IMG/VR virus record: IMGVR_UViG_3300037245_003526
Location: 216,297-244,552 of that record
Source: a virus
DNA: 28,256 bases
Reading direction: 5' to 3' (one strand)
Made by a program: the position numbers and the translations under genes
Shown here: piece by piece, positions 2,834-28,237 of the stretch
Layout: each line of letters begins with the position of its first letter
Position numbering within the stretch: position 1 is the first letter of the stretch
The notes under the pieces: model-generated
What the model was told of the DNA's origin: nothing
Database searches by the model: none
What the model saw: the letters and a program-made list of their open reading frames with translations, nothing else

Positions 2834-3709
2834 ATGAAACAAATCGAAGATGTGAAAATTTTAGTAGTTGGCGATATTATGTTAGATGAATATATAGTTG
2901 GAGATGTTAATAGAATTTCACCAGAAGCTCCAGTACCAATAGTTACTGTTAAAGATACATATTATAAACTAGGTGGTTGTGGAAACGTAATATCTAATCT
3001 TTCAAATATTGGAGCTAGAGTATCTTGTGTAACAGCAATAGGTCAAGATCAACCATCGAATATTATTCTGAAAGAACTTAGAAGTTTAAATGTTGATACA
3101 GAGTTTTTAATTTCTAGATCTGATATAACAACTACAATTAAAACAAGAATTATTTCTGATGAACGACAAATACAAATACTTCGATATGACACAGAGAATA
3201 TAAAAGATGTAGATACGTCTATTCTTGAATTAACTAATGGATATGATGTAATTGTAATTTCAGATTATGCTAAAGGTATGATAACAAAACCATTAATGGA
3301 TAAACTTAAAAGTTTTGGTAATAATATCATAGTTGATCCAAAACCAAAAAATTCACATTTATATAATGATATATTTTTAATGACTCCAAACCAAAAAGAA
3401 CATGATGAAATGATGAACGGTTATTTTCCAAGAGTTGAATATGTATTAAAAACTATGGGAAAAAATGGAATGGAGTTAATAGAGCAAAAACATGGAAGAC
3501 AAGGTGGAATTAAAATTAAATCAAAACCTGTCGATGTTTATAATGTAAGCGGAGCAGGTGATACAGTAGTAGCAATTATATCTCTTTGTTTAGCATTAGG
3601 TAACGACTTATATACCTCTGCTAAAATAGCAAATGAATGTGCCGGTTATGTAGTAACCCAAACAGGAACCTCAATGGTGCCAAGAGAATTTTTTAAGGAG
3701 CTATTATGA
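2834..3709 (+). CDS. D-glycero-beta-D-manno-heptose-7-phosphate kinase-like (HldE/RfaE domain I, pfkB/ribokinase fold)
   Basis: AAAGGAGA RBS. The N-terminus ILVVGDIMLDEYIVGDVNRISPEAPVPIVTV is nearly diagnostic for RfaE/HldE domain I. Also present: DYAKG, IVDPKPKN, and the C-terminal pfkB anion-hole motif NVSGAGDTVVAI...AGYVVTQTGT. At 291 aa it is kinase-only; there is no adenylyltransferase domain. Confidence 0.75.
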   Translation: MKQIEDVKILVVGDIMLDEYIVGDVNRISPEAPVPIVTVKDTYYKLGGCGNVISNLSNIGARVSCVTAIGQDQPSNIILKELRSLNVDTEFLISRSDITTTIKTRIISDERQIQILRYDTENIKDVDTSILELTNGYDVIVISDYAKGMITKPLMDKLKSFGNNIIVDPKPKNSHLYNDIFLMTPNQKEHDEMMNGYFPRVEYVLKTMGKNGMELIEQKHGRQGGIKIKSKPVDVYNVSGAGDTVVAIISLCLALGNDLYTSAKIANECAGYVVTQTGTSMVPREFFKELL

Positions 3710-4457: not shown

Positions 4458-4988
4458 ATGAAACCAACGAATGAAATGAAAGAATATTTTGAACTAAGAA
4501 CCAACAGTCATATTAATATTGTGCAACTTAGTATGTTTTCTTTAATAAATAAAAAAGTTCATGAGAAGTATAATCTTAATAAAATTAATTTAATAAGTAG
4601 AGCTGATATACATGATAAATCCAAATTTGGTGATGTGGAATATACTCCATATGTTTGGTTAACAGAATTTTATCGAGCTAAAAATAATAACGAGCCTTTT
4701 AGTTATCCAGATGGAATGGAAGATTTAATATTTGATGCTTGGATACATCACTCTGAAACTAATCCTCATCATCCAGAATATTATCATAATTGTATTAGAA
4801 TGTCAGAAGAAGATATGGTTGAAATGGTTTGTGATTGGAATTCTATGTCACAGGAATATAATCAATCTCTTAAGAAATGGGTAGATGAAAATATTGATAG
4901 AAAATGGAAATTTAATAAAAAAAATAAAAAGTTTATTTATGAGATAGTAGAAATATTAGAACAAAAACTAAATACAGATATACTTTAA
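4458..4988 (+). CDS. possible HD-domain phosphohydrolase
   Basis: The ORF track starts at GTG 4443. An ATG at 4458 with an upstream AAAGGA fits better. His/Asp pattern: H(INIV)...RADIHDKSKFGD...DAWIHHSETNPHH...VCDWN. Weak motif-level call. Confidence 0.5.
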   Translation: MKPTNEMKEYFELRTNSHINIVQLSMFSLINKKVHEKYNLNKINLISRADIHDKSKFGDVEYTPYVWLTEFYRAKNNNEPFSYPDGMEDLIFDAWIHHSETNPHHPEYYHNCIRMSEEDMVEMVCDWNSMSQEYNQSLKKWVDENIDRKWKFNKKNKKFIYEIVEILEQKLNTDIL

Positions 4989-5001
4989 AAGAGGTAGCTA
5001 T

Positions 5002-5772
5002 ATGTTACAACTAGACACTAACAAAAAAAGAATACTTGAATATAAAATAGATATTCAAGGAATTGATTATAAAGAACTTGAAGGTGTTTTAAAATTTACA
5101 ATAGAAAATGTACATTATGGATTTCCATTAGAAATATTGTCTGATAATATTTTAGCAGAAGTACCTCCATTAGAAACAATTGTAAAGAATCTAAAAGATA
5201 AAGATATCATAAAATGTAAACTTGAAGTTTATGGAGAAGGTTTTTATTTGAATCCATGGTCAGGTGAATTTCAACTTGCAAAACCAGTTAAAGTAGAAGC
5301 TGCTCTTAAAGGTGAAGATGAAATTGAAGGTAAAGCTGTTACTGCTACATTAGTTGAAAAAACTAACAGACCTAAAGAAGATATAAAACCTGAAAATATT
5401 GACGAATCTGAAAAGAAGAAAGTTCTAACTAAATTATTCAAGAAAATAGAAGCAGCTCCTAAGAAAAAATTAATATCAGAGAAAGTACAATCAAAACTAA
5501 CAGAAATGAATAATCTTGTTGATATGTTTACAAGTTCATCTCTAAGAAATATAAAGAATATACCAAAACCAGTCAAACCTAAAAAAATTATGGTAGAAAA
5601 TGATCCATTGGCTCTAATGGCATCATTTGGAATGAAAAATAAAAATATTCAAGAAAGATTATTAGAATCTATTGGAGATAATGAACCAGATGAAGTTTGT
5701 AGACAACTTAGAAAAATGCTAGGAAATGAAAATCAAGATTCAATTTCATTATATTCTAAACTTCGAGGATAA
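5002..5772 (+). CDS. hypothetical Lys/Glu-rich protein (256 aa)
   Basis: AAGAGG RBS, long ORF, no recognisable motifs. Confidence 0.6.
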   Translation: MLQLDTNKKRILEYKIDIQGIDYKELEGVLKFTIENVHYGFPLEILSDNILAEVPPLETIVKNLKDKDIIKCKLEVYGEGFYLNPWSGEFQLAKPVKVEAALKGEDEIEGKAVTATLVEKTNRPKEDIKPENIDESEKKKVLTKLFKKIEAAPKKKLISEKVQSKLTEMNNLVDMFTSSSLRNIKNIPKPVKPKKIMVENDPLALMASFGMKNKNIQERLLESIGDNEPDEVCRQLRKMLGNENQDSISLYSKLRG

Positions 5773-5775
5773 CAA

Positions 5776-6123
5776 ATGATACTAGATTCATATTTACAAT
5801 ACATTCAAAAAGAAGAGACGTTGCAAGAATTTATAACAGTCCCTATGATTGCTATATTAGTAAAAGTCTATACCAGACATTTAAGTAAAGCTGCCAAGGC
5901 ATGTATCGGACATACAAGAGTCTCAAAAACAATATGTATATTAGAATATAGATTAAAAGCAGCACAAAACATTCAAACCGATTTAAAGAAAATTATTGGA
6001 AAATGTAGAAGTTCTAAAAATCCACAAAAATGTGTTTTAAAAGTTAATAATCGAATAAATTATTTTAAACGAAAAGAACAAAAAATAAGACAACAACTAT
6101 CAAAAGCATATCAGAAGGTTTAA
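5776..6123 (+). CDS. hypothetical basic protein, member of an 'SYL(D/Q)YIQ' N-terminal motif family
   Basis: GAGGA RBS. N-terminus MILDSYLQYIQKEE is shared with the ORFs at 6125 and 12685. Confidence 0.55.
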   Translation: MILDSYLQYIQKEETLQEFITVPMIAILVKVYTRHLSKAAKACIGHTRVSKTICILEYRLKAAQNIQTDLKKIIGKCRSSKNPQKCVLKVNNRINYFKRKEQKIRQQLSKAYQKV

Positions 6124-6124
6124 T

Positions 6125-6544
6125 ATGAATAAAATTACAGAATCCTATTTAGATTATATTCAGTCTGAAAAATATACAATCAAATCTGCTATAAAAGCTA
6201 CTGGAAAGTCTGTAGCCACTATGGCAAAAGGAACAAGTAAAGCTGCTTTAAGTGCAGTGACATTACCTTATAAAGTAGCTAAAGGTGTTGGTCGTGCCGC
6301 AGAAAAATCAGGTGAAATTTATTATAAAAGAGAAAAAAGAATAAGAGATAGAAAAATTGCAAAAAAAAGAAGAGCAGAAGCAAGAAAAAAGTTTGTAGGG
6401 AAGCTTAAATCAGCAAAAGCAAAAGTATCAAAACATGCACCAAAGGCAGTTGTCGCTGGTTTAGCAGGTATTGCAGCACATCAATTATATAAGAAATATA
6501 AACAATATAAAAAAGGTAAAGATAGCGAAAAAAATGAAGAATAA
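6125..6544 (+). CDS. basic Lys/Ala-rich protein (histone-H1-like tail), 'SYLDYIQ' family
   Basis: N-terminus ESYLDYIQSEKY, then a K/A/R-rich body (KRRAEARKKFVGKLKSAKAKVSKHAPKAVVAGLAG...). Confidence 0.6.
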   Translation: MNKITESYLDYIQSEKYTIKSAIKATGKSVATMAKGTSKAALSAVTLPYKVAKGVGRAAEKSGEIYYKREKRIRDRKIAKKRRAEARKKFVGKLKSAKAKVSKHAPKAVVAGLAGIAAHQLYKKYKQYKKGKDSEKNEE

Positions 6545-7112
6545 TATAATTAAAAATTATTTAAGTTTAATTCAAGAAGGTTACCTATTTTCGGATAAAA
6601 CAATAAGTATAGATCTTAATAAATTTGAAAGTGGAGAATCTAATACATTACTCGTAGTAGGTCTTATAGGTTCTGGTAAAACAACGTTAGGAAACTATCT
6701 CGCAAAAGAATATAAAGCACAATCCCTTCATACAGATAAATGTATTGCTTGGACTATAGCAGAACATCCTCCAAATAAAAAATTAATATCTGAATATTAT
6801 AAATGTATTCTAAAAATGATTAATTCTAATAAAAAAAGTGTTGTTGAAGGAACTGGTTTAATAGATCTAATGTTAGATAAAAAAGAATTGTTTGATTATC
6901 CAATGATTATAATTGGAAAGTCTGCCTTAGCAAGTTCAATTCAGTCAATGTTAAGAAATAGAAAAAATAAAGAAGAAAAGTTTTGGAGATTAATTTCCAT
7001 TCATACAAGATTGAATTTTAAAACTTTTTATAAAAAAATATTAGAAGTAAGAAAAGAAAGATTAAAAATACCTGGAGCAGTCATAGAAGAATATAAGGTA
7101 CCTAAATTATGA
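6534..7112 (+). CDS. P-loop nucleotide/polynucleotide kinase-like protein
   Basis: The track ORF starts at 6471 inside the previous gene. The ATG at 6534 overlaps the upstream stop by 11 nt and gives MKNNIIKNY... Walker A LLVVGLIGSGKTTLGNYLAKEY in a ~190-aa protein, consistent with a dNMP-kinase / PNK-kinase-like fold. Confidence 0.6.
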   Translation: MKNNIIKNYLSLIQEGYLFSDKTISIDLNKFESGESNTLLVVGLIGSGKTTLGNYLAKEYKAQSLHTDKCIAWTIAEHPPNKKLISEYYKCILKMINSNKKSVVEGTGLIDLMLDKKELFDYPMIIIGKSALASSIQSMLRNRKNKEEKFWRLISIHTRLNFKTFYKKILEVRKERLKIPGAVIEEYKVPKL

Positions 7113-7136
7113 ACTATCTAATGAACAGGAGAACTA

Positions 7137-7406
7137 ATGGCTAAACGCAAATCTTGTAAGCTTTGCACAGTTAAGAGAAAACAATGGGAAGAGGAAAACT
7201 TTTTTGGAGTTAATTGTAGGAAACATTTCGTACCTTTAATGGTAGTAAAAACACATAAGAAACGATTAAGTCCAGAGGAGAAAATTCAGGTTAAATTATT
7301 TATTGAAAAATATCATAATGGTATGTTTCCAGATAAATCGTTCAATGATTCAGAAGAACATTGGCACTTACATTTAACAAAAAAAGACAAGGGAATTAAA
7401 ATATAA
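7137..7406 (+). CDS. small Cys-containing basic protein (89 aa), possible zinc-binding
   Basis: CAGGAGA RBS. CKLCTVKRKQWEEENFFGVNCRKHF. Confidence 0.5.
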   Translation: MAKRKSCKLCTVKRKQWEEENFFGVNCRKHFVPLMVVKTHKKRLSPEEKIQVKLFIEKYHNGMFPDKSFNDSEEHWHLHLTKKDKGIKI

Positions 7407-7422
7407 TTCCCAAGCTTTTTTA
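7391..7422. terminator. bidirectional terminator hairpin
   Basis: GGGAATT-aaaatat-AATTCCC perfect 7-bp stem spanning the 7137..7406 stop, with an A-run upstream and a T-run downstream. It lies between convergent genes. Confidence 0.5.
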
Positions 7423-7773: not shown

Positions 7774-7923
7774 ATGGATCTATATATAGAGCATATAAAG
7801 AATATTTTAAAAGAACCAAAAAAAATAAATCTATCAGAAGTAACCATCACTAATAAAGATTTATTTATAATAAATGAAATCGCTAGAAAAGATGAAAAAC
7901 TTTTTCAGATTGGAGATGAATAA
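7774..7923 (+). CDS. small ORF (49 aa) below the track size cut-off
   Basis: AAAAGGAGAattattATG at 7774. Translation MDLYIEHIKNILKEPKKINLSEVTITNKDLFIINEIARKDEKLFQIGDE*. Its TAA overlaps the ATG of the next gene (TAATG coupling). Confidence 0.4.
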   Translation: MDLYIEHIKNILKEPKKINLSEVTITNKDLFIINEIARKDEKLFQIGDE

Positions 7924-8348
7924 TGGATGATAATGACTATTTAAACCTATTAAAAGATCAACAAAAAAAAGACGATGAATCATTGGTTATGTTAAATGAA
8001 GAGAAACAAGATACCGAAACATTCGCTCCGTGGATAGGTGTTGATCTTGATGGAACATTAGCATATTATGAAAAAGGATATGCTCAGAAAAAAATGATTG
8101 GTGATCCAATTCCTGAAATGTTTGAAAGAGTAAAGAAGTGGATTGCTGATGGTAAAATAGTAAAAATATTTACTGCAAGAGTATACAAAAAAGAAGATGT
8201 TGGATTAATAAAAGATTGGTTGAAAAAAGTTGGTCTCCCTGATCTTGATGTAACCAATATTAAAGATCCTGGTATGTATGTCCTTTATGACGATAGAGCA
8301 GTTCAAGTACAACAAAATACCGGAAAGCTTCTAGGTAAACCTATTTAA
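7923..8348 (+). CDS. HAD-superfamily phosphatase (polynucleotide 3'-phosphatase / deoxyribonucleotidase-like)
   Basis: HAD motif I GVDLDGTLAY, motif II KIFTAR, and a motif IV-like LYDDRAVQV resembling the T4 Pnk phosphatase DDRTQVV. Confidence 0.6.
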   Translation: MDDNDYLNLLKDQQKKDDESLVMLNEEKQDTETFAPWIGVDLDGTLAYYEKGYAQKKMIGDPIPEMFERVKKWIADGKIVKIFTARVYKKEDVGLIKDWLKKVGLPDLDVTNIKDPGMYVLYDDRAVQVQQNTGKLLGKPI

Positions 8349-8353
8349 TTATG

Positions 8354-8380
8354 AGGTGGTAAAACTTCTACCACCTTTAT
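8354..8380. terminator. bidirectional terminator hairpin
   Basis: AGGTGGTA-aaacttc-TACCACCT perfect 8-bp stem followed by TTTAT, between convergent genes. Confidence 0.55.
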
Positions 8381-9307: not shown

Positions 9308-10246
9308 ATGGGATGTAAATGTTTAGAAAAAATACAATCATTATTTTCTGGTTGGAATCCATATCCATATGTACCTGGACAAGATGATAATATTATTCTT
9401 GACCCAATACCTGAACCTACTCCTGACCCAATACCTGAACCTATTATTGAACCTGTAAAGAAAGCAGTATTGGTTGGTATAAATATTTATCCAGCTCATA
9501 TGGATGCTAATTTAAGTGGATGTGTAAATGATGTTACGAATATGAGAAATTTATTGGTTTATACGTATGGATTTGATCCTGATAACATTAGAGTTCTAAA
9601 TGATGATCGTGCTACTAAAGCTAAAATTTTTGAAAGGTTAACATGGTTAATGAATTCTAATGAAGGTGATGAATTAGTATTTCATTATAGTGGTCATGGT
9701 AGTCAAGTAAGAGATAGAAATGGCGATGAACTAGATGATGGTTTAGATGAAATATTAATACCATACGACCATGATTGGGATGCTCCATTATTAGATGATC
9801 AAATAGCTGAAATATTTAAAACACAACCTGAAGGAACTAATCTCACAATGATTGCTGATTGCTGTCACAGTGGTTCTGTTTCTAGAGATATATCTAAAAA
9901 GAAGAAAAAAATTAGATTCCTTACACCACCATTTGATATCAGAAATAGAAGTCTTGATAAAGACTTATTATTAAGAAAAATTGGAGTTAAACCAAAAGGG
10001 ACTCAAAGACATATTCTTGCATCAGGTTGTAAAGATCATCAAACCTCAGCAGATGCATATATAGGATCAACATGGCAAGGTGCTTTTACATACGCTTTAA
10101 CTTCAGCTTTAAAAACAAATTCTAATCAATCTTGGACTTCAGCAATTGAAAAATTAAGTAGTATATTAGAAGTAAAAGGTTTTGATCAAACACCTCAACT
10201 AAGCGGAGATGATCAAAATAAATTAGTTTTTGGCGGAGCTGTTTAA
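9308..10246 (+). CDS. caspase-family (peptidase C14, metacaspase-like) protease
   Basis: AAAAGGAGG RBS. Catalytic dyad contexts FHYSGHGSQ (His) and IADCCHSGS (Cys, the D-x-C-H-S-G metacaspase signature). Typical fold start VLVGINIY and C-terminal QLSGDDQNKLVFGG. N-terminal MGCKC followed by a Pro-rich linker DPIPEPTPDPIPEPIIEP encoded by an 18-nt direct repeat. Confidence 0.8.
   Translation: MGCKCLEKIQSLFSGWNPYPYVPGQDDNIILDPIPEPTPDPIPEPIIEPVKKAVLVGINIYPAHMDANLSGCVNDVTNMRNLLVYTYGFDPDNIRVLNDDRATKAKIFERLTWLMNSNEGDELVFHYSGHGSQVRDRNGDELDDGLDEILIPYDHDWDAPLLDDQIAEIFKTQPEGTNLTMIADCCHSGSVSRDISKKKKKIRFLTPPFDIRNRSLDKDLLLRKIGVKPKGTQRHILASGCKDHQTSADAYIGSTWQGAFTYALTSALKTNSNQSWTSAIEKLSSILEVKGFDQTPQLSGDDQNKLVFGGAV
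9401..9442 (+). repeat. 18-nt direct repeat (x2) encoding a Pro-rich linker in the caspase gene
   Basis: gacccaatacctgaacct at 9401-9418 and 9425-9442 (DPIPEP x2). Confidence 0.7.
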
Positions 10247-12684: not shown

Positions 12685-13227
12685 ATGAAACTTTATAAAA
12701 GTTATTTAGAGGATCCATCAGATAATATAGTAGAAGCAAAAGAAGATGAAATTGTATCAGAAGATGAGCTTTTAACAGAAGCTGAAATTCTTCCAGATCT
12801 ATTAGTTGATTGTCTTTTAGAATCAAATGAACTAACTGAGTTATTCTTAGATTACATTCAAGAAGCAGATGCAGATAAAAAAGAAACTAAAAAAGAGAAG
12901 TTTAAAAGATATCTTAAAACGGCCGGAAAAGCAGCACTTGTTGGCGCAGCAGGTTATGGTGCTTATACAGCAGCTACAAAAGCAAAGGCAGCTTATCCTG
13001 GAGCAAAAGCAGCAGCAACAAAGAAAGGTAAAGAAGTAAAAGTAGCAGCAGCAGCAACAAAGAAAAAAGTAGTAGCAACAGGTAAAGAAGCAGCAGCAAA
13101 AGTAAAAGCAGCAGCAAAAGAAATAAAAAGAAAAGGAAAATTAAAAGGTAAAGAATTAGTAGCAGCTTATCAATTACATCGCACAAAACCTCACGATGTT
13201 AAAATACCATATCGTCCAAAAGGTTAA
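12685..13227 (+). CDS. Lys/Ala-rich histone-H1-like protein, third member of the SYL.YIQ family
   Basis: TAGGAG RBS. Acidic N-terminal half with LFLDYIQEAD, then a C-terminal half AAKAKAAYPGAKAAATKKGKEVKVAAAATKKKVVATGKEAAAKVKAAAKEIKRKGK encoded by (GCA)n-rich DNA. Confidence 0.6.
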   Translation: MKLYKSYLEDPSDNIVEAKEDEIVSEDELLTEAEILPDLLVDCLLESNELTELFLDYIQEADADKKETKKEKFKRYLKTAGKAALVGAAGYGAYTAATKAKAAYPGAKAAATKKGKEVKVAAAATKKKVVATGKEAAAKVKAAAKEIKRKGKLKGKELVAAYQLHRTKPHDVKIPYRPKG

Positions 13228-13444: not shown

Positions 13445-14677
13445 ATGGGTAAAATTAAATATCCTGGTTTATGTGAGTTCGTTCAGGAAAAACTCAAACA
13501 GAAAAAAGATTCCACAGAGATATTTAATGAGGCATGTAGAACATTCAATTACAAAGATAGAATTAGTAGCTTCAGAAGATATGTAAATAATATAAAATAT
13601 AGACATAAAGATGATAGTCCAAATCAACCCTCAAATGATCAAACCATAAAAGAAAACTTACCAAAAGATGACGTATCAGAATTTCTTGATATTGTTTCGA
13701 AACAAAAAAATATAAGCATTATTGACATATGTAATGATCTTAATTGTTCACCACAAAGAATAGATAATTTAGTTTCCTATCATAGATCAAAAGGTTATGA
13801 TATCACCATTCATGAAGATATGGTTATGTTCTTTACAGACCTAGTATCATCAGTCGAACAAGTCCCTCAGATATCAGAAACCGAAATAACATTTGGTGTA
13901 GCATCCGACCTACACTTTGGATCCAAAGCAGCACAAATAACCGCTCTAAATGAGTTCTGTAATATATGTTCAAAAAGAGGAGTTAAACACATATTCAGTC
14001 CAGGTGATATTGTAGCAGGTTATAATGTATACCCTGGACAGCAATTCGATTTATATGCTTTATCAGCAGAAGAGCAAGAAGATTCAGTAATTAAAAATCT
14101 TCCAACCGGTGACTTTCAATGGTATATGTTAGGTGGTAATCATGATTATGCCTTTATTAAAAAGGGTGGTGGTCATAATCCTGTATTAGCAATAGCATCA
14201 AAAAGAGAAGATGTACATTATGTAGGTTTCGATGATGCTGATATACCTATACTTAATGGAGTAGAGCTTAAGCTGTGGCACCCTTCTGGAGGTGTGCCAT
14301 ATTCAGTATCTTATAGATTACAAAAAGGTGTAGAGCAAATATCATATAGCGAATTAAGAAGAATAATAAGCGGAGAAAAAATGGCACCAACAATTAGATT
14401 TGTACTGTCTGGTCATTTACATATTCAAGTACAAGCTATGATTGGATCAATATTCGGAATGCAATGTGGAGCATTTGAAGGTCAAACAAATTATCTAAAA
14501 CGTAAAGGTTTAGTACCTAATATTGGTGGATATATAGTTAATGCAGAATTAGGAAAAAATGGTCTTATTAAAAATTTCGATGCTAAATTTTATATGTTTG
14601 AAGATATAGAAGATGATTGGAGAAACTATAGTCATAGTATACCAAAACAAAAAATAGTTAAACCTATATTTGGATGA
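13445..14677 (+). CDS. calcineurin-like metallophosphoesterase with an N-terminal extension (410 aa)
   Basis: TGGAGG RBS. MPP motifs ASDLHFG (D-x-H), SPGDIVAG (GD), LGGNHDY (GNHD), LWHPSGG, and LSGHLHIQ (GH-x-H). Confidence 0.7.
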   Translation: MGKIKYPGLCEFVQEKLKQKKDSTEIFNEACRTFNYKDRISSFRRYVNNIKYRHKDDSPNQPSNDQTIKENLPKDDVSEFLDIVSKQKNISIIDICNDLNCSPQRIDNLVSYHRSKGYDITIHEDMVMFFTDLVSSVEQVPQISETEITFGVASDLHFGSKAAQITALNEFCNICSKRGVKHIFSPGDIVAGYNVYPGQQFDLYALSAEEQEDSVIKNLPTGDFQWYMLGGNHDYAFIKKGGGHNPVLAIASKREDVHYVGFDDADIPILNGVELKLWHPSGGVPYSVSYRLQKGVEQISYSELRRIISGEKMAPTIRFVLSGHLHIQVQAMIGSIFGMQCGAFEGQTNYLKRKGLVPNIGGYIVNAELGKNGLIKNFDAKFYMFEDIEDDWRNYSHSIPKQKIVKPIFG

Positions 14678-15441
14678 AAACTGAAAAATATTATATTTAT
14701 GCATATTTAGATCCAACAAAAAAAGGTAATTTTAAATATACGATTGAAGGAAAAATATTTATATTTGAATTTGAACCTTTTTATATTGGAAGAGGAACAA
14801 AAAATAGACTATTGGATCATTTAAAGTTACATCCTTTAGATAAAAATTATTTTAAAAAGAATAAAATTAAAAAAATAAAAAAATTAAATATAGAACCAAT
14901 AATAGTCAAGGTAAAGTTTTTACCTGATAAAATAAAAGCTAACTTATTAGAAAAAGAATTTATTAGTGTTATTGGTAGAAGAGATTTGAATCTAGGACCC
15001 TTAACAAATCTTACTGATGGGGGAGATGGAACTTATGGTTATAAACCTTCTGAAGAAGCAAAAAGAAACTGGAAAAAATCTATAAAAAAATTTTATGATG
15101 TAAAAGAAAATAGAGATAGAATGGGTTACTATAGTACAATTGAAGGAATGATTGAAAAATATGGAATAGTTGAGGGAGAAAAAAAGTATAAAGAAAGAAT
15201 AAGAAAGATGAAGAAGTCGATTAATAAAACATATAGTGATCCAAAAATAAGAAAAAAATGCTCAAATAAAGGTTCTAAAAATGGAATGTTTGGTATTACC
15301 CCACCTCATGCAAAAAAAGTTTTAGTTATGGAAGTTTTTTATAACTCCATTGCAGAAGCTTCTAAACATACTAAAGTTCCGTATACCACATTATCTCAAA
15401 GGTTAAATAGTAAAAATTTTTCAGAATATAAATATTTATAA
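14674..15441 (+). CDS. GIY-YIG homing endonuclease
   Basis: Overlaps the preceding stop (ATGA) and has a weak RBS, as is typical of free-standing HEGs. N-terminus YIYAYLDP...PFYIGRGTKNRLLDH carries GIY and YIG motifs with conserved R/H. The C-terminus has a NUMOD-like HTH (GMFG..PHAKKVL..EVFYNSIAEASKHTKVPYTTLSQRLNS). Confidence 0.8.
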   Translation: MKTEKYYIYAYLDPTKKGNFKYTIEGKIFIFEFEPFYIGRGTKNRLLDHLKLHPLDKNYFKKNKIKKIKKLNIEPIIVKVKFLPDKIKANLLEKEFISVIGRRDLNLGPLTNLTDGGDGTYGYKPSEEAKRNWKKSIKKFYDVKENRDRMGYYSTIEGMIEKYGIVEGEKKYKERIRKMKKSINKTYSDPKIRKKCSNKGSKNGMFGITPPHAKKVLVMEVFYNSIAEASKHTKVPYTTLSQRLNSKNFSEYKYL

Positions 15442-19459: not shown

Positions 19460-20128
19460 TCACCACCTATTCCCACCACCTTTTGCCTTTTTTAATTTAA
19501 CATCTTTAAAAAGTTTGTTATTCCCTTTAGTACAATAAAGGAAATGAAACACCGGGAAATCAACAGTATCTATCTTTTTATAGTAACCTTTTCTAATAAG
19601 AGTTCCTGCTGGACTTTTTTCATGATATTTAGCAACCAAACCTTTAATGGATGTCTTACGGAACCCATATTTTTCATATAAAAAGTCTGCAATATCATCC
19701 GTTGAAAAAACCTTATCTGCAAAGGGACCATTAATACATTTTATTATATGATCCATCGCACTTCCAATCCTTACAGTTCCAGGTTTTACACCTATCTTTC
19801 TGCTAACATAAATTACCGATCCGTTTCCCGTTACCCTTTCTAATTTTACTTTTTTAAAAAGATTGAAATTACCCTTGAGACAATAAAGATAATGAAAAGT
19901 TTTAATACCATTTTTTGCCTTCTTTTTCTTATAGAAAGCTTTCCGAAGTAAGATACCAGGATCGTCATTATATAACTTCGTGACTTCGCTCCTAATTGAA
20001 TCTTCAGCATAACCATATTTTTCGTATAAAAACATAGAAACATCTGCCGTCGAAAATACTTTTTTTGCAAATGGACCATTAACACATTTGATTATATGAT
20101 CCATTTGACTACCCTCTCTTATTTCCAT
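19460..20128 (-). CDS. protein made of two tandem ~105-aa homologous halves
   Basis: AAAGGAGatgaataATG. Half 1 MDHIIKCVNGPFAKKVFSTADVSMFLYEKYGY...FHYLYCLKGNFNLFKKVKL. Half 2 MDHIIKCINGPFADKVFSTDDIADFLYEKYGF...FHFLYCTKGNNKLFKDVKL. Confidence 0.6.
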   Translation of the reverse strand: MEIREGSQMDHIIKCVNGPFAKKVFSTADVSMFLYEKYGYAEDSIRSEVTKLYNDDPGILLRKAFYKKKKAKNGIKTFHYLYCLKGNFNLFKKVKLERVTGNGSVIYVSRKIGVKPGTVRIGSAMDHIIKCINGPFADKVFSTDDIADFLYEKYGFRKTSIKGLVAKYHEKSPAGTLIRKGYYKKIDTVDFPVFHFLYCTKGNNKLFKDVKLKKAKGGGNRW

Positions 20129-22484: not shown

Positions 22485-23123
22485 CTAATTTATTTTGCCT
22501 CTATCAGTTGGAATCTCAAGTTTGTTAAGCACATTGTCAAAATTTCCATGTACTGATGAACCACTCTCTAAAATTTCTCCTCTTTCCTTTTTACATTTTT
22601 CGCAGGGGCAACTTTTAGGTACTATATTCTTTAATAAATCTCCAACCATTTCTACAATTTTTGAATCTTCTATAGGTAGTGGAGGATTATCATCTATTAT
22701 TTTTTTAATAACTAAACGATTATCCTCATTCCAGGGAGATACATATTGTTCAAATGGAACATTGAATGCCCATTGTGTATCTTCTATATAGGTTTCCCCG
22801 CCCGGCGTAATGTCTTTCATACCAATCTTTATAGCATTCTTTCCATCCGATTCAGTGTATACCATAGCTAATGTATGTGTAGTTTCCGATATAAATAATA
22901 CCAAATCCGTTTTAACTTTGTAAGATATTATAGATACAAAATCACCTGCCTCTTTCCTCATAGCAGGATCATGGACTGGAAGAACGTTTACATCAACTTC
23001 CTCGTTTTCCATTTTTTTGACCAATATAAACAAAGAAGGTCTGTATTCCTTATTTATGTTATTAATAGCTTCACTAAAAATTTCATCAGCAATCTCCTTA
23101 AACTTCATTTTAAATTCTTCCAT
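22485..23123 (-). CDS. paralogue A of a duplicated 212-aa protein family with a C-terminal Cys cluster
   Basis: AGGGGAAttaaaATG. About 60% identical to 23468..24106. The C-terminal CPCEKCKKERGEILESGSSVHGNFDNVLNKLEIP is near-identical to its paralogue. Confidence 0.65.
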   Translation of the reverse strand: MEEFKMKFKEIADEIFSEAINNINKEYRPSLFILVKKMENEEVDVNVLPVHDPAMRKEAGDFVSIISYKVKTDLVLFISETTHTLAMVYTESDGKNAIKIGMKDITPGGETYIEDTQWAFNVPFEQYVSPWNEDNRLVIKKIIDDNPPLPIEDSKIVEMVGDLLKNIVPKSCPCEKCKKERGEILESGSSVHGNFDNVLNKLEIPTDRGKIN

Positions 23124-23145: not shown

Positions 23146-23424
23146 TTATTTTATTTTTTTTTGTTTCAGTATATTTTTTGTAAAAATTATCTTAGAATTC
23201 TTTATAGCTTCATCAAGAATTTCCTCAATCTCCTTACGTTTCTCAGCATTCAAGCCTGGATGTTTTTCCATTATCTCTATAAATTCTGACCTGAATCCAC
23301 CCAATATATTACCAGTATATCTCACCATACTTTTTTTATATTCTCTAGTAAGATATTCATCATTATTATTTTTACTCTTTCTTCTATTAAATCTATCATT
23401 CCATTGTTTAGTAGACCTGTTCAT
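23146..23424 (-). CDS. basic hypothetical protein (92 aa) between the two paralogues
   Basis: GAAGGTGActaactaATG. Confidence 0.5.
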   Translation of the reverse strand: MNRSTKQWNDRFNRRKSKNNNDEYLTREYKKSMVRYTGNILGGFRSEFIEIMEKHPGLNAEKRKEIEEILDEAIKNSKIIFTKNILKQKKIK

Positions 23425-23467: not shown

Positions 23468-24106
23468 TTAATTTATTTTGTTTTTATCATTAGGAATCTC
23501 AAGTTTGTTAAGCACATTGTCAAAATTTCCATGTACTGATGCTCCACTTTCTAAAATTTCTCCTCTTTCCCTTCTACATTTTTCGCATTGACAATGGTTA
23601 GATGCTAAATTCTTTAATACATCTCCAACTATTTCCATAATTTCTGAATCTCCTATGGGATCTGGAGGAGGATTATCCTTTATCAACTGTTCGATAAATA
23701 AACGATTTTCCTCATTCCAGGGTGATACATATTGTTCAAATGGAGAATTGAATTCCCAGGTTGAATCTCCTACATATATTCCTTCTGGTTTATTGTATTT
23801 AGTACCAAACTTTAGAGCACTCTTTCCGTCCGATTCGGTGTACGACATATACAATGTATTTTCAGTTTCCCATATGAATAATATCAAATCCTTTTTATTT
23901 TTGTAAGATATTATAGATACAAAATTACCTGCCTCTTTTCTTTTAGCAGGATCATATACAGGAATAATGTCTACATCACTTTCCCCGTTTTTCAAATCTT
24001 TGACCAATATGAAAAGAGAAGGTCTTTCTTTCTCGTTTATATTATTACAAGCTTCACTAAAAATCTCATCAGCAATCTTAATAAACTTCATATCAAATTT
24101 TTCCAT
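23468..24106 (-). CDS. paralogue B of the duplicated 212-aa family
   Basis: GGGGGaaaaATG. C-terminal CQCEKCRRERGEILESGASVHGNFDNVLNKLEIP. Confidence 0.65.
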   Translation of the reverse strand: MEKFDMKFIKIADEIFSEACNNINEKERPSLFILVKDLKNGESDVDIIPVYDPAKRKEAGNFVSIISYKNKKDLILFIWETENTLYMSYTESDGKSALKFGTKYNKPEGIYVGDSTWEFNSPFEQYVSPWNEENRLFIEQLIKDNPPPDPIGDSEIMEIVGDVLKNLASNHCQCEKCRRERGEILESGASVHGNFDNVLNKLEIPNDKNKIN

Positions 24107-26938: not shown

Positions 26939-28237
26939 TTATGGGTGAATAATTTTAAACCGAGTAGTTCCTATTGTTATATTTTCCTCTCCCCTTAAAT
27001 GTTTAGGAATGTTTGTGAAGTCAGTTCCTTCCCCTACCCTCCTTTGATGACTTCTTACCCAGTGTTTAATATATCTTAAACGACCTGTCTGTGTCACGGG
27101 AGCATCTCTAGCATAAAATAAAGATTTAATTTGCTCATAGTCAACTGAAAATGTGCATTTACTCTTCCCTTCCAAAGCTATTATTTTCCACATTTCCTTC
27201 TCACGAATCATTTCGTCGCAGTCTAGCATAATTGACGCCATTCTGCATGATTTTTGTAGTTCTATATGTGTTAGCTTTGTCATAGTTTTGTTTTGAAAGT
27301 CTTCAGGAAGTTCATACAAACCATTATTTTTTCCATTTAAAGCTTTTGTAAAACTCATTGGAAAAATAGGACCTATTAAATTGTTTCTAAAATCAATACG
27401 AAGTGGAATCTTATAACCAAATATTCCACCCTCGTCTCTATAAGCAAGCTTGTATAGAGCATAGGGTCTAGACCAGTTATTCCATAACTCAGGTATTGTA
27501 CCTAAATCCTTATGTGGAGAAGGTTCAGGTTTTAAATAATACATATAAGTGTTTGCCGTCCTGTATGTTATGTAATCAGCTGCAGATCCTTGTAACCCTA
27601 GTTTTTCAGTCATATTTTTAGCAGCTGAATCCTCTACTCCCTTATCCTGATTGCCAGATACAGATACAGATATAACCCCAGTTGGCCTATCATAATCAGC
27701 AAGAAATATAGCAGCATGGTCCTCTGTAAATCTATCACTTACATCCTCGTCCTGAAATGGAGATCTCCTGTTGTCACTCTTAGAGTAGTTCATAAATGGA
27801 GTAAAGTAGGGTCCAATCTTTTTCAAAAAGTTGAATTGATTAGGTTTTATTCTGAATAATTTATCGTACCCTTCTTTACATGTCATCTTTTCTAAAAAAG
27901 CTATTAATGTAGTCTCAACCACATCAGAAAAATGATCATCATCCCACCAATCAATCATTCTCCTTTCCTTTTTTTCCTTCATAGATATAGTAATCTTTTC
28001 CCATTCACCATTTGTAGATTTCCACTTACCGCGTAAAGACCAAGGATTCTTCCAATATAATTGAAGTGTGTGGTCTGTACCTGTTAACCTTACTCCTTCA
28101 TCTCCTTTGTCATTACCTTCTAGTATTAAACTAGAAAATATAATAGTAATTATATTTGTTGAATTATCCTTATTATATTCCCCTTGATATGTGCTTATTT
28201 TTTCGTTGTAATTATGTATGGTTATTCTAGCTTTCAT
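26939..28237 (-). CDS. hypothetical protein (432 aa)
   Basis: AAGGGAGtacttaATG. Long uninterrupted ORF, Trp/Tyr-rich, no recognised motif. Confidence 0.6.
   Translation of the reverse strand: MKARITIHNYNEKISTYQGEYNKDNSTNIITIIFSSLILEGNDKGDEGVRLTGTDHTLQLYWKNPWSLRGKWKSTNGEWEKITISMKEKKERRMIDWWDDDHFSDVVETTLIAFLEKMTCKEGYDKLFRIKPNQFNFLKKIGPYFTPFMNYSKSDNRRSPFQDEDVSDRFTEDHAAIFLADYDRPTGVISVSVSGNQDKGVEDSAAKNMTEKLGLQGSAADYITYRTANTYMYYLKPEPSPHKDLGTIPELWNNWSRPYALYKLAYRDEGGIFGYKIPLRIDFRNNLIGPIFPMSFTKALNGKNNGLYELPEDFQNKTMTKLTHIELQKSCRMASIMLDCDEMIREKEMWKIIALEGKSKCTFSVDYEQIKSLFYARDAPVTQTGRLRYIKHWVRSHQRRVGEGTDFTNIPKHLRGEENITIGTTRFKIIHP

Follow-up and report, generated by a model that had tools for sequence, protein, structure and literature searches.

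A 28,256-nucleotide (nt) stretch of viral DNA (IMG/VR record IMGVR_UViG_3300037245_003526, positions 216,297 to 244,552; hereafter the window, in whose numbering all positions are given) encodes several proteins that share a short peptide, of which LDSYLQYIQKE is one form. We found that this peptide is a portable N-terminal tag of about 11 residues on otherwise unrelated proteins. With the pattern M-x(0-4)-[ILV]-[ND]-x-Y-L-x-Y-[IL]-[QN]-E, it opens more than 40 different open reading frames (ORFs) on AT-rich contigs of uncultured phages, up to 308 kb long. The tag is conserved at the protein level, passes between protein folds, is confined to phage contigs, and occurs in gene arrays, and the proteins that carry it are basic. 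By analogy with the capsid targeting sequence (CTS) of phage T4, it may be a peptide that loads proteins into the capsid. A preliminary description of the window had noted the motif in three ORFs and taken them for paralogues with histone-H1-like tails.

The window gene set used for counting the motif comprised 52 genes and 8530 amino acids (aa). In it the pattern [YF]L.[YL]IQ occurred 4 times versus 0.017 times expected from composition (Poisson P = 3e-9, a value limited by the choice of the pattern after the data were seen). Because the most matches in any of 1500 shuffled sets was 1, chance does not explain the motif. The copies at 5776, 6125, and 12685 given in the preliminary description are all present, but its count was too low: a six-frame scan revealed a fourth carrier, orf6534, and orf7923, described below, is probably a fifth. 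Three consecutive genes (orf5776, orf6125, and orf6534) have the motif within residues 3-15, and orf12685 has it at residues 51-60.

The first of these genes, orf5776 (5776..6123, + strand; 115 aa), starts with MILDSYLQYIQKE and has the tag LDSYLQYIQKE at residues 3-13 (nt 5782-5814). The tag leads into a short hydrophobic stretch, EFITVPMIAILVKVY, and then a basic part in which 4 Cys are invariant; orf5776 is a Cys4 protein and not rich in Lys and Ala (K/A rich). In orf6125 (6125..6544, + strand; 139 aa; start MNKITESYLDYIQSE) the tag is TESYLDYIQSE, residues 5-15 (nt 6137-6169). Past it the protein is 30% K+R and 17% A, with a net charge of +28, and this K/A-rich part holds a Gly/Ala-rich hydrophobic segment, VVAGLAGIAAHQLYKKYK. 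The start of orf6534 (6534..7112, + strand; 192 aa; start MKNNIIKNYLSLIQEG) overlaps the stop of orf6125 by 11 nt. Its tag, IKNYLSLIQE (residues 6-15, nt 6549-6578), precedes a P-loop kinase-like domain whose Walker A motif is GLIGSGKTT; the best Pfam match, AAA_18, scored 25.4 bits, below the 29.4-bit cut-off. In orf12685 (12685..13227, + strand; 180 aa) the tag is internal: TELFLDYIQE occupies residues 51-60 (nt 12835-12864), with A61 next, behind an acidic leader of residues 1-50 (nt 12685-12834). The first 60 residues have a net charge of -16 and contain five [LI]xE sites versus about one expected. Past the tag lies a K/A-rich tail (28% K+R, 25% A, net charge +25).

According to the preliminary description, these genes belong to one histone-H1-like, DNA-compacting family. 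The motif would then be an ancestral remnant in diverged paralogues; the genes lie side by side, which is how recent duplicates would be placed, and the very basic, K/A-rich composition of orf6125 and orf12685 makes DNA binding by their tails plausible. Paralogy is nonetheless largely refuted, and we regard this explanation as highly improbable. In pairwise BLASTP of orf5776, orf6125, and orf12685, similarity was restricted to the motif stretch, 12 to 32 residues, and the three ORFs are thus not a paralogous family. Furthermore, the tag also stands on kinase-like, NUDIX, GNAT, and DsrC-like folds, orf5776 has no K/A-rich part, and the K/A tail of orf12685 stems from local in-frame repeats. What held from the comparison with the C-terminal tails of histone H1, chlamydial Hc1, and AlgP was composition: like them, orf6125 and orf12685 are K/A rich, highly basic, and of low complexity. 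Kinship was not supported, and the likeness in composition does not establish it. Pfam gave no match at E<=0.05 for orf5776 and orf6125 and only a chance-level match for orf12685, not to H1, Hc1, or related proteins, and PDB gave no histone, H1, Hc1, or DNA-binding protein match for the named ORFs; PHROGs and PADLOC likewise linked none of the window carriers to DNA-compacting proteins. The two K/A-rich proteins differ from those tails in being proline poor (just 2-3%) and in having Gly/Ala-rich hydrophobic segments, and their N-terminal tag has no counterpart there. Even so, the mature K/A-rich parts of orf6125 and orf12685 may compact DNA.

The preliminary description had also considered it unlikely that the K/A-rich ORFs were out-of-frame artifacts of (GCA)n DNA, and the data agree. 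Codon usage favored the annotated frame in all the ORFs, K/A tails included, and the ORFs are intact in the variant contig L004, whose DNA is 94.5% identical to that of the window. Repeat periods in the DNA of orf12685 were 18, 21, and 33 nt, each a multiple of 3 and in frame. Codon usage and these repeat periods rule out a frame artifact of GCA-type repeats. Imperfect 21/33-nt tandem repeats at 13005-13140 build part of the K/A tail, and 18-nt repeats at 12741-12789 build part of the acidic leader. These in-frame local repeats suggest that orf12685 grew quickly by local repeat expansion. It is an orphan, with no homologue but itself among 1.84 billion representative proteins; in L004 it is intact, with the substitution I58V in the tag. 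An AF2 model made with no alignment was all-helical and, with a mean predicted local distance difference test score of 45, uninformative.

Searches beyond the window gave the distribution of the tag. In IMG/VR, the back-translated pattern for MINxYLxY[IL]Q matched at three genuine ORF starts, which lie on contigs of 115, 203, and 207 kb. In the JGI metagenomes, 26 of 29 matches to MINxYLxY[IL]QE were exact starts of tag-bearing ORFs (44-215 aa), on contigs with 23-32% GC and up to 308 kb long. In 596 Gb of prokaryotic genomes the same pattern had 4 matches, none of them a tag of the clade: 2 were not in ORFs and 2 were bacterial gene starts with Y-F instead of Y-L. A SIS_2 protein in L054/L070 that starts with MINQYFNYLQE was rejected as a bacterial gene and a false positive. 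Neighboring genes that the pattern did not pick often carry variant tags (MIDKYLDHIQEG, MIDLYLHYLNEM, MSYINDYLNMLQEA, MTLVNEYLEYIQEA, MSIIETYLDYLQED, MDMLENYLDKIQ, MLLESYLKYLQEE, MTKVTDNYLQYLQNE, and MILKNYLKRLNE), and thus at least 20 tags are independent of the search pattern, by adjacency or orthology.

The consensus of 42 non-redundant tags was I(31)-N(29)-x-Y(41)-L(42)-x-Y(36)-[I22/L20]-Q(36)-E(36), with counts inflated at positions fixed by the search pattern; conservation ends after the Glu. When 310 ORFs (41 thousand residues) were scanned with a tag profile, 15 of 16 tags began at residue 2-6, the sole internal one being that of orf12685, and in 43 of 44 tagged proteins the tag has its first Tyr at residue 5-10. 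Several synonymous codons are used for the conserved Y, L, I, Q, and E. Selection is therefore on the peptide and not on RNA, and we ruled out an RNA- or DNA-level element on this ground. No described family in Pfam, PHROGs, PADLOC, or PDB has the motif, the tagged small proteins had no PADLOC match, and neither the tag nor any CTS-like peptide of metagenomic phages is described in the literature searched; in this the preliminary description, which knew of no such family, was right.

Retention of the motif in orthologues, on which the preliminary description had made its grouping depend, was seen for three of the carriers. Orthologues of orf5776 were found in L036, L039, L043/L065, L046, and L078, each with the tag and the 4 Cys. 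The L039 orthologue of orf6125 (37% identity; start MTKVTDNYLQYLQNES...) likewise has the tag, along with the C-terminal segment; in a search of 5.8 billion proteins, the sole match to orf6125 was a 98% variant. Orthologues of orf6534 (L012, L041, L052, L060, and L078) begin MI[ND]xYLxYIQEGYLF.... Two short proteins matched a profile built from the four window N-termini: P0002 and P0003, which start with MIN[TS]YLQYIQEGYLFSDKTIS. These mini-proteins of 48-54 aa (P0003, L009 375-521; P0002, L010 254-418) lack the P-loop domain of the orf6534 kinase-like family but retain its tag, its first ~30 residues, and its last ~8 residues, and they resemble products of deletion in which the reading frame has stayed open. 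The 1.5-kb ENA contig of P0003 has two further ORFs, which start with MINEYLNYLQEN and MINEYLDYLQID.

The tagged proteins are diverse in fold and alike in charge. Among 45 of them, Pfam recognized 6 kinase-like P-loop proteins (AAA_18), 3 NUDIX, 3-4 GNAT, and 1 DsrC-like protein; of the remainder, one was SIS (the bacterial false positive) and about 30 had no Pfam match. Lengths were 78-298 aa, with a median of 157. The median net charge per 100 aa was +10.2 for tagged proteins versus 0.0 for untagged ORFs of the same loci (Mann-Whitney p = 9e-11), and 96% of the tagged proteins were net positive versus 48% of the untagged ORFs. This basicity extends to the tagged enzymes, beyond the low-complexity proteins. 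The tagged DsrC-like protein (L017 2206-2979, with the same gene in L055; 257 aa) carries MIDLYLHYLNE as its tag variant and has at its C-terminus a DsrC/TusE-like domain (Pfam E = 9e-25), by which its gene is a predicted auxiliary gene of the sulfur-relay type.

orf5776, orf6125, and orf6534 form an array between two conserved flanking genes. On the left is orf5002 (5002..5772, + strand; 256 aa), with an Ig-like beta-sandwich N-domain (a confident prediction), a K-rich disordered linker, and a helical C-domain. Its family has at least 54 members and in relatives lies downstream of tail-fibre-like genes; orf5002 is probably a virion-associated protein. We dropped it as a clue to the destination of the tag because the fold is generic Ig-like only. 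On the right is the Cys-rich orf7137 (7137..7406, + strand; 89 aa), orthologues of which come directly after the array in L036, L037, L039, and L078. Between these flanks the number of tagged genes is 3 in the window, 2 in L039, 1 in L036 and in L078, and 0 in L037; tandem arrays of 2-3 tagged genes are also present in L009, L012, L049, L052, L058, L059, and L063. A terminator-like hairpin at 7391-7411, on both strands, overlaps the orf7137 stop codon and closes an operon with the tagged array. All window carriers are in a + strand block, alongside an endolysin and the Ig-like protein, and none is among the ~23 genes of the - strand block that includes a helicase. A scan for sigma-70 promoters gave matches at or below chance.

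The probable fifth carrier, orf7923 (7923..8348, + strand; 141 aa), has ~38 extra residues at the N-terminus, where a degenerate tag, MDDNDYLNLLKDQ, is located. Its tag-profile score was weak, 1.5 bits, and its orthologue in L039 has a clear tag at the start (MILKNYLKRLNE / MILKNYLKRLNEQ). Past the tag there is a DxDGT motif (GVDLDGTLA), which makes the protein HAD-phosphatase-like by motif only; it had no match in Pfam. A second terminator-like hairpin, at 8353-8377, follows this gene.

To our knowledge, a short, transferable peptide for capsid loading has been mapped at the level of single residues in phage T4 only. In the T4 CTS, MKTYQEFIAE|A, Y4 and F7 are needed for targeting to the scaffolding core and I8 and E10 for processing (PMC9026906), and the prohead protease gp21 cuts after L/I-X-E (PMC9026906). 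The loci of T4 internal proteins are variable, and the CTS alone is conserved and common to otherwise unrelated internal proteins (PMC3012670, PMC9026906). The tag has the same layout. Like the CTS, it is an N-terminal peptide of 10-19 residues on otherwise unrelated proteins and has the spacing Y-x-x-aromatic-[I/L]-x-E (in the tag, at some of its best-conserved positions, Y in 41/42, Y in 36/42, I/L in 42/42, and E in 36/42); the protease-type end [IL]-[QN]-E is present in 36 of the 42 non-redundant tags. Both peptides are amphipathic helices, strongly so for the tag, with a hydrophobic moment of 0.61 (top 0.7% of shuffles) compared with 0.45 for the CTS. The tagged proteins, like T4 internal proteins, are small and basic, and T4 also has a tagged enzyme, Alt. 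In both cases the genes are at variable loci outside the head-gene cluster, and the variable arrays between conserved flanks resemble T4 internal-protein loci.

The T4-CTS layout of the tag, ending at Glu, and the acidic multi-site leader of orf12685 led us to propose that the tag is a capsid-loading propeptide for proteins that are packaged and injected together with the DNA. The N-terminal position of the tag, its portability, selection on the peptide, its specificity to contigs of the clade, the variable arrays, the basic charge of the carriers, and the place of the window carriers in the + strand block also count in favor. The tagged proteins are known here from their genes alone, and we offer this proposal tentatively, as one whose chances are just short of balanced; both the capsid destination and the cleavage are inferred from T4. 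The hydrophobic face of the helix (I, Y, L, Y, I/L) would dock the new protein onto the core or scaffold of the assembling prohead, and a prohead protease would then cleave after the conserved Glu of [I/L]-[Q/N]-E. The basic mature proteins would stay beside the DNA inside the head and be delivered to the host together with it, and orf5776, orf6125, orf6534, and orf12685 would then correspond in function to the internal proteins of T4. The 50-residue acidic leader of orf12685, with its further [LI]xE sites, might shield the basic tail up to its own removal by cleavage. The second option of the preliminary description, that of internal virion proteins injected with the genome, is supported in spirit and, by analogy, appears to be the best explanation.

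Several results count against this proposal. A hidden Markov model (HMM) of the tag placed none of IPI, IPII, and IPIII in the top 15 of 254 T4 ORFs. Because it misses the N-termini of the T4 internal proteins, the likeness is one of analogy, with homology not demonstrated, and we ruled out the tag as a homologue of the T4 CTS. The L/I-X-E motif is exact in the tags of orf6534 and orf12685 and one residue off in those of orf5776 and orf6125, where IQKE and IQSE (2 of the 4 window tags) have an extra residue ahead of the Glu. The inflation of the 42-tag counts at pattern-fixed positions weakens the comparison, at least 20 tags being free of it. The density of tags is high (at least 4-5 in 28 kb), and some of the cargo looks metabolic (DsrC-like and HAD-like), with no obvious gain from injection. 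The T4 late promoter TATAAATA was not enriched (9 matches versus 10 expected). Finally, no gene for a major capsid protein, portal, scaffold, or prohead protease was reached around the tags, orf5002, or the tail sheath; these loci held tail, baseplate, and accessory genes only, and past the tail sheath of a distant relative, L038, there were tube and baseplate genes and no head genes. There are also differences from T4: the host phages showed no kinship with known T4-like phages at the level tested, carriers are far denser per kb in this clade and include a wider range of enzymes, and its cargo is far more basic (net +4 per 100 aa for T4 IPII versus a median of +10 here).

That no head genes were found near the tags would also fit another explanation, in which the tag is an uncleaved docking helix and takes basic proteins not to the capsid but to another site within the cell, for instance the replicating DNA of the phage, a compartment that it builds, or a partner protein common to them all. 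Such a helix would account equally for the amphipathic N-terminal helix, its portability, and the basic charge, and kinase-like, NUDIX, GNAT, HAD-like, and DsrC-like cargo would suit an intracellular role in metabolism or with nucleic acids. However, it leaves unexplained both the sharp end of conservation at the Glu of L/I-x-E and the acidic, [LI]xE-rich leader of orf12685. A comparable linear signal at the N-terminus, for import or docking, was absent from the literature searched and is not known to us. We consider this explanation unlikely, if still a serious candidate.

Unusual peptidases are encoded near tagged genes. A gene for a caspase family Peptidase_C14 protein at 9308-10246 (+ strand; Pfam E = 2e-32, with a PADLOC "caspase" match) encodes an N-terminal MGCKC motif and a linker of PIPEP repeats and is conserved in L039 and L079. 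L036 and L037 have a papain-like C1 peptidase in its place, and L036 also has a C92 peptidase. The presence of these peptidases, with the position of the tags at the extreme N-terminus, would fit a third explanation, in which the tag affects the life of the protein, either as a degron or zymogen peptide for a host or phage protease (for example C14 or C1) or as a leader that tunes translation. This seems to us improbable. The C14, C1, and C92 peptidases are missing from some of the loci examined, and we know of no cleavage after Glu by C14 or C1 peptidases. A degron leaves the shared strong basicity unexplained, and the synonymous codon variation speaks against an RNA-level element such as a translation-tuning leader.

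The capsid-loading proposal has parallels outside T4. In the phiKZ-like giant phages phiKZ, 201phi2-1, and SPN3US, the propeptides of ejection or inner-body proteins are cut after Glu at a three-residue motif (PMC5694885, PMC9026906). These jumbo phages package dozens of proteins with their DNA, some of the propeptides are multi-site, and paralogues have conserved N-termini (PMC5694885, PMC9026906). The acidic multi-site leader of orf12685 resembles these propeptides, which differ in being mostly >100 residues long and in having the motif S/A/G-x-E instead of [IL]-x-E; nor do phiKZ-like phages have a single short consensus tag across unrelated folds. The cargo-loading peptides of encapsulins embody the same concept, a short terminal peptide, usually C-terminal, that loads unrelated enzymes into an HK97-fold shell, with a different sequence, no protease step, and no DNA. 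What T4 had already provided is the portable N-terminal loading peptide; new here are the sequence of the tag, the phage clade, and the breadth and strong basicity of the enzyme cargo.

In a broader form, the idea would be that, in a clade of uncultured aquatic phages with genomes of 200-300 kb, a single N-terminal "address code" routes dozens of unrelated, charge-adapted proteins either to the capsid or to a DNA-associated compartment of the cell. This is doubtful as it stands, though by no means far-fetched. If the tag does load the capsid, this would suggest that cargo loading by an N-terminal tag is a general strategy, possibly evolved more than once, and a sequence rule would list the injected proteins of these phages from metagenomes alone, yielding candidate anti-defense and takeover factors. 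The T4 capsid-loading peptide became a tool for packaging foreign proteins, and the tag would be a new targeting peptide for engineering. Were the capsid the destination, the virion would deliver an enzyme toolkit (kinase-like, NUDIX, GNAT, and others); were it a DNA-associated compartment, the tag would be the first linear sorting signal described for a phage-organized compartment. Even with a destination other than the capsid, a sorting signal on more than 40 unrelated proteins would provide a testable handle on protein organization in large phages.

The window itself has a GC content of ~30% and is densely coding, with strong Shine-Dalgarno sites. A megablast of 25 kb against 50,697 phage records found no near relatives among cultured phages. 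The best cultured-phage match of the window helicase was to jumbo phage Tunturi_5 at just 26% identity, and the window phosphoesterase had just 29% identity, to a Halorubrum virus. A search of IMG/VR for the window sequence returned no exact match, and single-protein scans of IMG/VR with orf6125, the helicase, and orf6534 gave no match. tblastn with orf6534 and with a conserved 432-aa protein (26939-28237, - strand) found no match among cultured phages. The 432-aa protein has an orthologue in L017; it also had no match in Pfam, PHROGs, or PDB and no exact product in the contig index.

Other genes of the window also deserve mention. A gene similar to GIY-YIG homing endonucleases at 14674-15441 (+ strand) matched LEM-3_GIY-YIG and an I-TevI DNA-binding domain below the Pfam cut-offs. 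It is missing from L004, which is otherwise collinear with the window, as would be expected of a mobile element. A 222-aa protein (19460-20128, - strand) consists of two internal repeats of ~110 aa each, MDHIIKC[VI]NGPFA.KVFST.D... (from translation only). Two 212-aa paralogues with 68% identity are encoded ~350 nt apart at 22485-23123 and 23468-24106 (- strand), with one 92-aa ORF (23146-23424) between them; each has a CxCxxC motif at the C-terminus and matched no family. At 1859-2701 and 2834-3709 (+ strand), a response regulator with a PAS domain adjoins a PfkB sugar kinase, and the related contig L042 encodes a 938-aa hybrid histidine-kinase-like protein (4507-7323). By their domain content, these window and L042 genes are putative phage-encoded parts of two-component signaling.

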